A stretch of DNA of 64,000 bases from Candidatus Peribacterales bacterium (GCA_020058765.1 JAGVDM010000003.1:52019-116018); one strand, 5' to 3'; shown: positions 1,687-64,000, counted from the stretch's first letter. Made by a program: numbers and translations. Notes: generated by a model from the letters alone, not told the origin.

Positions 1687-1785
1687 GGGCAATTAGCTCA
1701 GCTGGGTCGAGGATCCGCCTGCGGATCCGAGCCACAGAAAAGACGCCACTGGCGCGGCCTCTGAGCAAGAATGCATTCACAGAAC
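1687..1785 (+). other. tRNA-Val 5'-half mimic / leader module (pseudo-tRNA-like element)
   Basis: GGGCAATTAGCTCAGCTGG is identical to nt 1-19 of the downstream tRNA-Val. It is followed by the hairpin GGATCCG-CCTG-CGGATCC (1711-1728), the A-rich tract CACAGAAAAGA, and the mini-hairpin CGCCA-C-TGGCG. There is no T-arm and no acceptor 3' strand. Confidence 0.6.
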
Positions 1786-20240: not shown

Positions 20241-20813
20241 ATGTTGAAACGTTCCGTACCGGCAATGATTGCCGCCACGTCCCTGCTGCTCACTGCAGCA
20301 CCAGCTGCAATGGCAGCAAGCACATGCGACACGCTCACGGGTCGCGAGCAGATGCGCTGCGAAATCGCACAGACGCGCCTGAATCGTAATCATCTGCGCT
20401 CTACGCAGGCAGAGGAGCGCTCATCCTTCCGCAGCTCCGCAAAGCAGCGCGTGATGGAGTCCACTCCTGGTGAAGCACGCAGCACCACGGTACGCGACCT
20501 CGGCAACGAGCGCCGCGCACTGCAGCGCATGCACCGCAACCAGCGCAAGACGTTCATCAATGAACTGCGCTCTGATCGTCGTGACTTGATGGAGAATGTC
20601 CGCAACACGCGCCGCGCACAGAAAGAGAACTTCCGCCTGCAGGTAAAAGAGCGCAAAGAGCTCATGCGCTCCACGCTCCAGAAGCGTGCTGCCGTACAGG
20701 AACCAGAAGTGGAAGTAGAGACCGAGGTTGAGACAGAAGTGGAAGTAGAGACCGAGGTTGAGACCGAAACGGAGGTCGAAACCGAGACCGAAACGGAGGA
20801 AAGCGCAGAGTAA
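20241..20813 (+). CDS. Secreted basic coiled-coil protein with an acidic (E-V/T)n repeat tail
   Basis: Signal peptide MLKRSVPAMIAATSLLLTAAPAAMA, an R/K-rich helical middle, and the C-terminal EVEVETEVETEVEVETEVETETEVETETETEE. Confidence 0.65.
   Translation: MLKRSVPAMIAATSLLLTAAPAAMAASTCDTLTGREQMRCEIAQTRLNRNHLRSTQAEERSSFRSSAKQRVMESTPGEARSTTVRDLGNERRALQRMHRNQRKTFINELRSDRRDLMENVRNTRRAQKENFRLQVKERKELMRSTLQKRAAVQEPEVEVETEVETEVEVETEVETETEVETETETEESAE
20706..20800 (+). repeat. Coding tandem repeat (two exact 30-nt units plus degenerate copies)
   Basis: gaagtggaagtagagaccgaggttgagaca occurs at 20706 and again at 20736 (29/30 identical, last base a vs c), followed by degenerate GAA/ACN/GAG units. 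Confidence 0.8.
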
Positions 20814-20960: not shown

Positions 20961-21067
20961 GGGCGATGAGCTCAGCTGGGTCGAGTGCCGCTTGCGGCAC
21001 GAGCCATAAAGAAAAGATGCGACACTGTCGCGCTCACGCTGGGCAATCACACTATCATTCACAACAC
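20961..21067 (+). other. tRNA-Ile 5'-half mimic / leader module, copy 1
   Basis: GGGCGATGAGCTCAGCTGG matches tRNA-Ile nt 1-19 at 18/19 positions. It is followed by the hairpin GTGCCG-CTTG-CGGCAC (20985-21000), the A-rich tract, and the mini-hairpin GCGAC-ACT-GTCGC. The last 42 nt are identical to copy 2. Confidence 0.6.
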
Positions 21068-21173
21068 GGGCGATTAGCTCAGCTGGGCCGAGGATTCTCT
21101 AGAGAATCCGAGCCATAAAAAGAACGCGATCTGTCGCGCTCACGCTGGGCAATCACACTATCATTCACAACAC
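21068..21173 (+). other. tRNA-Ile 5'-half mimic / leader module, copy 2
   Basis: GGGCGATTAGCTCAGCTGG matches 19/19. Its hairpin is GGATTCTC-TA-GAGAATCC (21092-21109), a completely different sequence that is still self-complementary. Confidence 0.6.
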
Positions 21174-32886: not shown

Positions 32887-32972
32887 TGGTGCCATGGGAG
32901 GGACTCGAACCCTCAATCCCTTGCGAGAACGCGATTTTGAGTCGCGCGCGTATACCATTCCGCCACCATGGC
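32887..32972 (-). tRNA. tRNA-Leu (anticodon CAA), long variable arm, CCA encoded
   Basis: The reverse complement folds as GCCATGG/CCATGGC acceptor, anticodon arm CGCGA-CTCAAAA-TCGCG, a variable arm, and T arm GAGGG-TTCGAGT-CCCTC. Confidence 0.93.
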
Positions 32973-37731: not shown

Positions 37732-37968
37732 TTATTCGACTTCCTCTTCCTGCATCACGCGGACGCCGGCCTCCATTTCGGCCTCGCCCTCAACCATAGC
37801 CTCGTCGGCTGCCATGTCCTCATCCTTCATCACGGTGCCATCTGGGACAACATGTTCGCCTTCCATAGCTTCGCCTTCCATTGCCTCATCGGCGGATGGC
37901 TGCTGTGCTGGGCTGCATGCTGCGAGGAGCATTGCGACAGAGAACGCTGCAAATACGGACTTCTTCAT
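37732..37968 (-). CDS. Small acidic lipoprotein (Met/Glu-rich)
   Basis: MKKSVFAAFSVAMLLAAC lipobox followed by (E/M/A)-rich repeats. Confidence 0.5.
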   Translation of the reverse strand: MKKSVFAAFSVAMLLAACSPAQQPSADEAMEGEAMEGEHVVPDGTVMKDEDMAADEAMVEGEAEMEAGVRVMQEEEVE

Positions 37969-38093
37969 GGAAATGGGGGAAAATAACGCGCCCATGCTAG
38001 TGCCGTGGGAGGGCAATTGACAAGCCAAGAATAGGGAAAAGTTCCGTATTCTCGCTTTGCATAGCGATGGCGCTCCTGCATAATTCGGCGCGT

Positions 38094-38192
38094 GCCACGG
38101 TAGCTCAGTTGGCCGCGTCGACGCTTGCGAGACGCGCAATCAAAGAAACTGTGCTCGGTTGGCTATCGATCTTTCCACTATTGTAGGGACAT
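38094..38192 (+). other. tRNA(CAT) 5'-half mimic / leader module
   Basis: GCCACGGTAGCTCAGTTGG is identical to nt 1-19 of the downstream tRNA. It is followed by the hairpin CGCGTC..CG-CTTG-CG..GACGCG (38114-38136) and the A-rich CAATCAAAGAAAC. Confidence 0.55.
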
Positions 38193-38268
38193 GCCACGGT
38201 AGCTCAGTTGGTAGAGCACGGGACTCATAAGCCCGGGGTCACCAGTTCAATCCTGGTCCGTGGCACCA
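38193..38268 (+). tRNA. tRNA with CAT anticodon (elongator Met or lysidine-dependent Ile2), CCA encoded
   Basis: GCCACGG/CCGTGGC acceptor with a paired G1-C72, so it is not an initiator. The anticodon loop is CTCATAA and the T arm is ACCAG-TTCAATC-CTGGT. There is an A31/G39 mismatch in the anticodon stem. Confidence 0.9.
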
Positions 38269-38289
38269 TCAAGATGTATTAGACCCACT

Positions 38290-38598
38290 ATGCAAAATCC
38301 GACTGAATATCGTGGCCCCACCATTCAATTGTCACCCATCTTTGAGGGGTCTGATGGACGTCCTTCTGTAATGTTTTGGACCGAAAAGACGCGGGGAAGT
38401 GTTATGGGGATACTCCAATATCACGAAGATAGCGGATGGATACTGGCACAACGGCACCCATGGACCGAGTACGATATTCCAGACTACATCATCGAACAGG
38501 CTCCTGTAGCTGCCGATGTTCAATACCCCAATGGCATTGGCTCACACTACAATCCTTCACACCCGCTTGGACATCCACAGAGTCGAGATTTGCCCTGA
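38290..38598 (+). CDS. Hypothetical protein inside the tRNA-flanked 376-bp segment
   Basis: ORF MQNPTEYRGPTIQ... with no recognisable motif. Confidence 0.35.
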   Translation: MQNPTEYRGPTIQLSPIFEGSDGRPSVMFWTEKTRGSVMGILQYHEDSGWILAQRHPWTEYDIPDYIIEQAPVAADVQYPNGIGSHYNPSHPLGHPQSRDLP

Positions 38599-38644
38599 TG
38601 AGAAAGGTGCTCGGCTCGACCACAAGTAGAAAAATCATCTCTAA

Positions 38645-38659
38645 TGGTCCGTGGCACCA
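38645..38659 (+). repeat. 15-nt direct repeat of the tRNA(CAT) 3' end (att-like)
   Basis: TGGTCCGTGGCACCA is identical to 38254-38268. Confidence 0.85.
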
Positions 38660-38789
38660 CGATACTTGTAAGCCACGCTCGCTCAGTTGCCACCGGTGGA
38701 GCCGCAAAAGGCTTGGATCGCAGTCCTCACAGAGGAGTCCGTAATGCTACAAACTGTAGTAACTTGCTGTGTGATGATACGATTGAAAC

Positions 38790-63984: not shown

Positions 63985-64000
63985 GCGGATGTAGCTCAGT
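63985..64000 (+). tRNA. 5' start of a tRNA or of another tRNA-5'-half mimic, cut by the window edge
   Basis: GCGGATG-TA-GCTCAGT fits an acceptor strand plus the start of a D arm. Its identity cannot be determined. Confidence 0.35.

Follow-up and report, generated by a model that had tools for sequence, protein, structure and literature searches.

A hairpin cassette opening with a copy of the tRNA 5' end precedes tRNA genes in Candidatus Peribacteria

The DNA considered here, a stretch of 64,000 nucleotides (nt) from a Candidatus Peribacterales bacterium (GCA_020058765.1 JAGVDM010000003.1:52019-116018; hereafter the window), carries five complete tRNA genes (Table 1). One of these, which has a CAT anticodon and which we call the Met gene, is preceded by an exact copy of its own first 19 nt, lying 99 nt upstream on the same strand. 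We refer to this copy as the mimic, and to the unit extending from it to the tRNA as a module or cassette. A repeat finder reported a 20-nt exact direct repeat (TGCCACGGTAGCTCAGTTGG, 38093-38112 and 38192-38211), and a search with the 19-mer itself (GCCACGGTAGCTCAGTTGG) returned two exact matches, compared with 0.01 expected from shuffled sequences. In terms of tRNA(CAT), the mimic spans the acceptor 5' strand, U8 and A9, the 5' strand of the D-stem, and the D-loop through G19. It is followed by a predicted hairpin, an A-rich tract, a conserved block and a -10-like box. An earlier note on this DNA had described the duplication, the hairpin and the A-rich tract, and we recovered all three. The conserved block GTGCTCGGTTGG contains GTGCTC, the antisense of tRNA nt 22-27, and is at the same time similar to GCTCAGTTGG, the D-arm in its sense orientation.

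Modules of the same kind lie upstream of tRNA-Val(GAC), with one unit of 99 nt, and tRNA-Ile(GAT), with two tandem units of 107 and 106 nt. The Ile units have an identical 62-nt block in common, and hairpins that are wholly unlike each other. With the same spacing of 99 nt and the same order of parts, the Met module can be accepted as a third, divergent instance of the Val/Ile element, as the earlier note had proposed. The same note had observed that three of the five complete tRNAs carry modules whereas tRNA-Lys and tRNA-Leu do not; this is correct for the window, but does not extend beyond it, because Leu genes of other Peribacteria have related cassettes. ARAGORN detected no tRNA gene in 38094-38192, and cmscan (E ≤ 10, 37950-38700) reported the true tRNA alone, the module not being tRNA-like (the gathering threshold of RF00005 is 29 bits). 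Comparison of the Met, Ile and Val regions with Rfam 15 (T-box, riboswitches, leaders) gave no meaningful match at E ≤ 10.

Table 1. Features of the window, with coordinates counted from its first nucleotide, and locations of a second hairpin type on related contigs
Feature	Position	Strand	Evidence and remarks
Canonical cassette before tRNA-Val(GAC)	1687-1785	+	covariance model, 76.7 bits
tRNA-Val(GAC)	starts 1786	+	ARAGORN, Rfam
tRNA-Lys(CTT)	starts 14485	+	ARAGORN, Rfam
Two tandem canonical cassettes before tRNA-Ile(GAT)	20961-21067, 21068-21173	+	covariance model, 67.6 and 77 bits
tRNA-Ile(GAT)	starts 21174	+	ARAGORN, Rfam
tRNA-Leu(CAA)	32887-32972	-	ARAGORN, Rfam
Promoter TTTGCA-17-CATAAT, sigma-70-like	38056-38084	+	promoter scan; ends 9 nt 5' of the mimic
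Mimic, exact copy of tRNA(CAT) nt 1-19	38094-38112	+	repeat and 19-mer searches
Hairpin CGCGTC-GA-CG-CTTG-CG-A-GACGCG	38114-38136	+	predicted fold
A-rich tract CAATCAAAGAAAC	38137-38149	+	sequence, alignments; CCAYARAAAAG in canonical units
Conserved block GTGCTCGGTTGG	38151-38162	+	invariant across three Met-type cassettes
-10-like box TATTGT	38179-38184	+	8 nt 5' of tRNA +1
tRNA(CAT)	38193-38268	+	ARAGORN, Rfam; elongator-type (G1-C72, C11-G24), A31.G39 mismatch, encoded CCA
Exact copy of tRNA nt 62-76, TGGTCCGTGGCACCA	38645-38659	+	391 nt downstream
Degenerate copy of tRNA nt 1-19 (16/19)	38672-38690	+	12 nt after the 3'-end copy
Second hairpin type	L123:2854-2925, L126:6163-6290, L141:4820-4915, L144 upstream of 913		sequence

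More than 20 independent contigs carried homologous cassettes. Within 197 kb of Peribacteria sequence, covariance model R1 identified 27 units, each abutting a tRNA or another unit; all of the strong matches were on the same strand as the tRNA and directly 5' of it, so that the duplications are not placed at random with respect to tRNA genes. When both strands of these 197 kb were searched for CGAG-hairpin-CGAG (at least five pairs), none was found outside tRNA leaders, and matches of the model to the hairpin alone, elsewhere in the window, stayed below 9 bits. We rejected dispersed palindromic repeats, whether repetitive extragenic palindromes and bacterial interspersed mosaic elements (REP/BIME) or resembling miniature inverted-repeat transposable elements (MITE-like), because the hairpin is confined to tRNA leaders within the 197 kb. 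When 185,579 species, each represented by a single genome, were scanned for GCTCAGYTGGNNCGAG-N(12-24)-CGAGCC, at least 118 stretches were returned. The palindromic insert together with a downstream repeat of the 19-mer occurred in at least five genomes, and among the matches listed these were all metagenome-assembled genomes of Candidatus Peribacteria/Peregrinibacteria; the other ~113 of the 118 were discarded as chance matches, in coding DNA of high-GC genomes. A tighter pattern, applied to metagenomes, gave 15 stretches, and 14 of these were cassettes directly 5' of tRNAs, the genes behind them being Ala (TGC, GGC), Val (TAC, GAC, CAC), Ile (GAT) and Pro (TGG). No description of such a cassette was found in the literature. 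The family is apparently undescribed, and is class-wide in the Peribacteria, uncultured members of the candidate phyla radiation (CPR).

The units are ~95-122 nt long, with from zero to three in tandem per gene, and relatives differ by whole units. The copy comprises tRNA nt 1-19, usually exactly, and is on the same strand as the tRNA. In alignment A1 the 5' part of a canonical unit consists of this copy, G-Y-CGAG, a stem of 6-7 base pairs (bp) with a loop of 3-5 nt, CGAGCCA and the A-rich tract. The flanks GGGYCGAG ... CGAGCCA are invariant in canonical units, and 19 of 21 units have CCA after the hairpin. The 3' part often contains a small hairpin (tRNA nt ~24-31 in sense orientation plus the complementary sequence), a stretch that is antisense either to the D-arm or to more of the tRNA 5' half, and a -10-like box, after which comes the next unit or the tRNA itself. 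To align true tRNAs with the unit, the covariance model dropped an insert of 34 nt, and the unit can accordingly be read as tRNA nt 1-31 into whose D-loop region the hairpin, CCA and A-tract have been inserted. Some Met and Leu genes are preceded by variants with a short copy.

Copy number is polymorphic in natural populations, since L125 has one Val(TAC) unit and L133 two, in sequences that are otherwise near-identical. Distal units are decayed on three contigs (L123, L126, L131), the mimics of L124 Ala and L144 Leu have diverged from their own tRNAs, and U8 is frequently mutated in distal mimics. Hairpins differ among the loci of one genome, and are similar at orthologous loci of different species. 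In different genomes, the 5' copies of Val, Ala and Leu tRNAs carry behind nt 13 an inserted second conserved hairpin type, composed of CCNACCTTCG, an inner hairpin and CTACGGTNGG (Table 1). The related cassettes of Leu-CAA in L141 and L144 contain it, and the same hairpin interrupts distal Ala and Val mimics.

Covariation in the stem was pronounced. Pairing was retained in 91% of cells, compared with 67.6% in column shuffles and 16-51% in controls in which the register was slid, and there were 43 double-change cells where 14.5 were expected, a number reached by none of 500 shuffles. The family hairpin is under structural selection. Its direct-repeat flanks, CGAG and CGAG, could add C-G, G.A, A.G and G-C layers to a continuous helix; RNAalifold preferred a neighbouring register, with G19-C48, G20-C47 and Y21-G46, a CGA/GA internal loop and a 7-bp stem. 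Both registers work on the + strand alone, which points to RNA or to single-stranded DNA of that strand. G.U and A.C pairs in the hairpin (4 versus 2) were too few for a decision between strands. We considered a kink-turn and rejected it, as the tandem G.A flanks lack a 3-nt bulge in either register. No intrinsic terminator was found on either strand of 38094-38192, nor a U-tract on the + strand. A small second hairpin in the cassettes of Val and Ile, taken with the complement of the A-tract, does look terminator-like on the minus strand (1743-1758, 21019-21031, 21122-21141); the Met cassette has no such site. A terminator reading was rejected, because these sites are on the minus strand only and in Val and Ile units only.

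In the Met copy, whose hairpin starts within 1-3 nt of G19 as expected for the family, GGCCGCG ... CGCGCAA replace the canonical flanks. G-C and C-G pairs have taken the place of the two non-Watson-Crick G.A positions; the motif is lost in this way, but the helix is kept. The earlier note was correct that the exact CGAG flanks are absent; however, what stands in their place, CGCG ... CGCG, is Watson-Crick paired and continues the helix. Because the CGAG/CGAGCCA motif is missing, we class the Met element, on its sequence, as a divergent "Met-type" subfamily rather than as a canonical member.

The order of genes from a Na/Ca exchanger to tRNA-Met is conserved among relatives, and homologues of the exchanger came from Peribacteraceae, Peribacteria or Peregrinibacteria wherever the source names the organism, so that the window almost certainly belongs to a Peribacteria genome. 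The Met leaders at these syntenic loci were found in several states. In L141, where the neighbouring protein is 61% identical, there is an exact 19-nt copy at -101, then GGCC, a fully paired GTCCC...GGGAC hairpin, the A-tract TTATAAAAAAG, a GTGC(GC)TCGGTTGG block, GATCTTTC and a -10-like box. L146 has a decaying version of the Met-type cassette (A-tract ATACAAAAAAG), and L137 corresponds to L146 minus exactly one unit. A 7-nt copy of the acceptor strand alone, followed by a longer hairpin and ACGAGTRACTC, precedes the gene in L135 and L143; L136 has an 8-nt copy at -28 with an 11-bp hairpin that includes tRNA nt 1-3; and L144, L148 and L150 have no copy. Given these leader states, the Met-type cassette is old and patchy, gained or lost as whole units. 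The hairpins of L141 and L146, both distant relatives, are unlike that of the window Met copy in sequence, yet are still paired, with one compensatory change from T-A to C-G. The GTGCTC block is GCGCTC in L141, whose tRNA has GAGCGC where that of the window has GAGCAC. A hairpin CATGAAAG(A/G)AAAACCGCAGGTYTGYCTTTCATG was also noticed in L137:1680-1720 and L146:7530-7570, 5' of the tRNA-Met leaders, and in L122 upstream of 995, at a tRNA-Ala cassette; it is a further conserved element of the regions 5' of tRNA genes.

The position of the promoter bears on whether the cassette is transcribed. The box CCTGCATAAT is conserved in relatives, and in the cassette-less L144 and L148 it lies 9 nt 5' of the tRNA itself, whereas in the window it lies 9 nt 5' of the mimic instead. 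For this reason the cassette is most likely a transcribed pre-tRNA leader, and the simplest reading of the sequence would be a long precursor starting at the mimic, perhaps with weak internal starts. Strict promoter matches lay 5' of the arrays at window Ile, window Met, L120 and L124, and -10-like boxes were present 4-30 nt 5' of 31 of 41 unit or tRNA starts, compared with a background of 28.5%. At the Met locus, examined for tandem sigma-70 promoters, the distal TTTGCA-17-CATAAT was found; the proximal TATTGT stands alone, the strict scan giving no -35 partner for it. Leaderless transcription of the Nanoarchaeum type was rejected, as the -10 box stands anywhere between 4 and 27 nt from +1. 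Two further observations were made on the window. Its last nucleotides (63985-64000, GCGGATGTAGCTCAGT) are the start of another tRNA or mimic, preceded by TTGCAT-17-TAGCAT. At 20704-20799, just 5' of the terminator and promoter before the Ile array, there are perfect repeats in tandem, of 30 nt (two copies) and of 16 nt, which are probably the repetitive 3' end of a coding region.

Our preferred explanation, to which we give a probability of about 0.4, is that recombination generated the cassette as a transcribed leader repeat, in which the hairpin and A-tract serve as a site of RNA processing or insulation and so neutralise the spare 5' strand; UP-like and -10-like promoter elements may be part of the unit as well. 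It starts from what was observed of the anatomy and distribution of the units, their covariation, their gain and loss and the position of the promoter. A duplicated tRNA 5' segment would have allowed recombination, giving rise to units of ~95-122 nt and to their continuing expansion and contraction. The conserved promoter, now before the first mimic, would drive a long precursor tRNA whose leader opens with a spare copy of nt 1-19, so that RNase P would need to cut ~99 nt further downstream. The part under selection would be the hairpin right after the copy (CGAG/CGAGCCA in canonical units) and the A-rich tract after it. At the RNA level these might keep the leader self-folded and mark an endonuclease cut in the A-tract, and through this cut the spare 5' strand would be detached or sequestered in time, before competing with the true 5' strand for the 3' acceptor strand. 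The A-tract, as a UP-like element, and the -10-like box might in addition supply a secondary promoter. Transcription of the leader, its cleavage and any benefit to the cell are what we infer from these observations.

Several points weigh against this explanation. A spare copy that was purely hazardous would most simply be deleted, and the invariant CGAG ... CGAGCCA suggests a specific partner, either protein or RNA. Diverged mimics are tolerated at L124 Ala and L144 Leu, so that exact identity elsewhere may reflect recent conversion rather than function. The idea of extra promoters is weakened by the strict sigma-70 scan, which gave two matches within 21 arrays, one of them dubious. For the Met copy itself, model R2, which was built without it, scored 12.2 bits (E ~0.02 by a rough calibration, and therefore suggestive only, synteny giving the stronger test), although this was the best non-training match except for true tRNA 5' ends, tRNA-Met itself scoring 6.4 bits. 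When folded alone the 99-nt Met module was no more stable than shuffled sequences (z = -0.27); with a folding energy this unremarkable, the case for structure in the Met copy rests on comparison with relatives. Finally, the start of transcription, the processing of the leader and the cleavage in the A-tract are all read from sequence.

A rival explanation, which spells out the RNase P or RNase Z idea of the earlier note and which we regard as rather unlikely, is that the cassette is a self-mimic riboregulator or decoy: the mimic would pair with the 3' acceptor strand, or the ~12-layer hairpin with its unpaired A would act as a minihelix-like pseudo-substrate, and either would control the yield or timing of maturation by RNase P. 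Every mimic does contain the acceptor 5' strand, with the junction at nt 7, 8, 13, 18 or 19, and the CCA after the hairpin and the stack that RNAalifold placed on the 7-bp stem would suit a pseudo-substrate. In 13 of 19 units the leader showed complementarity to the 5' half of the tRNA (≤5 of 200 shuffles as good; mean z = -2.5) and none to the 3' half, and this complementarity to the 5' half tracks the D-loop variant of each tRNA (TTAGAGC, CTAGAGC or TCAGAGC). However, it has been eroded by deletions in many units, and it was not significant for the window Met copy (z = -1.19). In 17 of 20 minimum-energy folds of unit-plus-tRNA precursors, mimic nt 1-7 were paired to the 3' strand of the tRNA, and in L123 the swapped fold reached -83 kcal/mol (z = -6.1). 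Precursors with shuffled leader tails, however, adopted the swapped state in 87% of cases with an equal energy gain (mean z = +0.19). Since shuffled leaders swap equally, the swap is a generic by-product or hazard of duplication and provides no evidence for a switch, and we rejected it as a sign of design. Some mimics are also unable to pair with the 3' strand (4 of 7 positions in L124), distal mimics often have a mutated U8, and the module gave no tRNA-like cmscan match at E ≤ 10. When co-folded with the tRNA, the natural leaders of window Val, Ile and Met had a smaller gain than 37-40 of 40 leaders with shuffled tails; such self-contained leaders fit, as far as the modelled folds go, selection against interference between leader and tRNA, and count for our preferred explanation. 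Two other candidates were rejected. The block GCTCTAACC resembles the E. coli boxA, but boxA-like antitermination does not account for a block that follows each tRNA's D-loop variant; and for a T-box-like specifier there was no consistent codon.

An origin by invasion, which we consider unlikely, would make the cassette a miniature non-autonomous element, consisting of a replacement promoter and 5' end, that enters the 5' part of tRNA genes by recombination and pushes the promoter and nt 1-19 that were there originally upstream. The element's own spread would then be what maintains the hairpin, as a structure recognised in single-stranded DNA or by a recombinase. The promoter is indeed still attached to the mimic, as if ~99 nt had been inserted after nt 19, exact units are present in some relatives and absent from others, and mimics of Ala, Val and Leu have the second hairpin type inserted behind nt 13. 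Classical 3' partial tRNA copies also occur in the clade, one of them beside a GIY-YIG nuclease gene, and the 15-nt 3' copy of the window tRNA-Met lies 391 nt downstream of the gene. Against this, no recombinase gene is linked to the cassettes, the hairpins within a genome are all unlike, with no sign of recent transposition, and the similarity of hairpins at orthologous loci across species indicates vertical descent. The G.U pairs, like the tandem G.A flanks, suit RNA of the + strand, and the hairpin motif is absent away from tRNA leaders in the 197 kb. Neutral tandem duplication, by slippage or unequal crossing-over at a highly transcribed gene, would leave the cassette without function, in the manner of the repeats downstream of E. 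coli tyrT. Variable copy number, decayed distal units, drifting mimics and the several orthologous loci without a cassette would all be expected from it, yet we hold it to be quite improbable, because compensatory covariation and invariant flanks extend across tRNA types and distant Peribacteria lineages, and because the Met type has been retained between genomes in which the neighbouring protein is 61% identical. In favour of a chance resemblance, or of an artefact in which the assembly collapsed repeats or made chimeras of them, nothing speaks except the shortness of the repeat. The number of chance matches expected was 0.01, homologous cassettes recur on many contigs, and an independent Logan assembly of run SRR6489204 (L134) was 100% identical across 2603 nt, module included; the probability that remains is negligible.

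If the transcribed leader repeat that we favour is set aside, there is a further reading, again a rather improbable one, in which the cassettes are a new class of cis-acting "self-mimic" tRNA leader, a spare copy of the tRNA 5' strand clamped by the hairpin: a factor reading CGAG/CGAGCCA would gate or meter the maturation of particular tRNAs, or processing would release a stable RNA of ~50 nt, resembling a tRNA 5' fragment, with each tRNA. Candidates for a dedicated factor would be RNase P, another nuclease or a binding protein. If either is true, no organism is known to regulate its tRNA genes in this manner. tRNA gene leaders are usually thought of as simple and unstructured; in this uncultured CPR class, many single-copy tRNA genes are preceded by a conserved RNA structure that covaries and is joined to a copy of the 5' end of the tRNA. 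If the cassette acts at the RNA level, it would provide a handle on how tRNA supply or the quality of maturation is tuned with ~46 single-copy tRNA genes (the five Ca. Peribacter riflensis genomes of PMC4736985 have 46 tRNA genes each), and the catalogues of structured RNAs would gain a new family. Should it instead be what a tiny tRNA-invading element left behind, both the target (the 5' end) and the miniature size would be unusual. R1, or the pattern GCTCAGYTGGGYCGAG-N(12-22)-CGAGCCA, is a very specific marker of Peribacteria DNA. For annotators, 5' tRNA fragments of this kind are neither pseudogenes nor assembly errors.

The A31/G39 mismatch that the earlier note had recorded in tRNA(CAT) is present, and is kept in the orthologous genes of relatives. 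As judged from the sequence, G1-C72 and C11-G24 argue against an initiator. On two Peribacteria contigs (L041:7464-7540, L121:9882-9958) ARAGORN called a tRNA-Ile with a TAT anticodon. If these calls are real, the clade may read AUA without lysidine, and this would favour a Met over an Ile2 identity for the window tRNA(CAT).

Other tRNA-derived copies lie nearby. The exact copy of the tRNA 3' end bounds a 376-nt insert with an open reading frame (ORF) of 102 amino acids that has no Pfam match, and looks like an attachment-site scar, left by a decayed insertion into the tRNA 3' end next to an old cassette. The degenerate copy of nt 1-19 is followed by the palindrome CCACCGGTGG and then by A-rich GCAAAAGG. 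The same view does not suit the 5' repeat of the Met gene, which did not qualify as an attachment-site duplication, there being 80 nt and no ORF between the repeats. In L126 (5380-6065, minus strand) a GIY-YIG nuclease ORF (PF01541, E = 1.3e-14) lies directly 3' of tRNA-Ala(GGC). After it come two partial 3' tRNA copies in which a loop-less GC hairpin replaces the anticodon arm (CCCCGC-AAA-GCGGGG), one of them also having a hairpin inserted in its T-loop.

Among known systems, the rrn P1-P2 region of E. coli has tandem promoters, UP elements and leader hairpins. The cassette is similar in being repeated 5' of a stable-RNA gene, in having A-tracts ~50-60 nt upstream of a -10-like box, and in its leader hairpin. 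It differs in that the Peribacteria repeats carry an exact copy of the first 19 nt of the mature RNA and their own CGAG/CGAGCCA hairpin, and in the rarity of strict -35/-10 pairs; nor does boxA-type antitermination suit it, as the GCTCTAACC-like block tracks the tRNA D-loop. Attenuator and T-box leaders offer another parallel, since the sense copy, the antisense stretch, the true 5' half and its 3' partner would allow alternation between 1:2/3:4 and 2:3/1:4 pairing. However, the cassette has no terminator, specifier or Rfam match, and its alternative fold was not favoured over that of shuffled leaders.

In E. coli tyrT there are repeat units of 178 bp, each with ~19 bp of the 3' end of tRNA-Tyr. 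Both there and here tandem units lie beside a tRNA gene, each with a tRNA piece of ~19 nt, and presumably arise by unequal crossing-over; but the tyrT copies are of the 3' end, downstream of the gene and in one species, whereas the cassettes have 5'-end copies upstream, are class-wide and contain a selected structure. Attachment-site repeats usually come from the 3' part of a tRNA gene. Partial tRNA duplications at the attachment sites of integrative elements are a further parallel (Williams 2002 and Reiter 1989, cited in PMC9897764). As with the cassette, a partial direct repeat of the tRNA lies next to an intact gene, and 3' copies are also found in this clade. Such repeats, however, bound kilobase-scale elements with an integrase, whereas the cassette has the 5' 19 nt, a fixed distance of ~100 nt, a covarying hairpin, no ORF and an arrangement in tandem arrays.

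The split tRNA halves of Nanoarchaeum, and the hairpins used as model substrates of RNase P, come close in another respect. The cassette shares with these a separately encoded 5' portion of a tRNA with a GC-rich helix after it, and also a helix that ends in a short single-stranded tail with CCA. Unlike a split tRNA, the cassette is followed directly by an intact tRNA gene, needs no joining and has no bulge-helix-bulge. Compared with hairpin substrates of RNase P (PMC12439589), its helix has 9-12 layers and a 3-5-nt loop, and is built without a T-loop.

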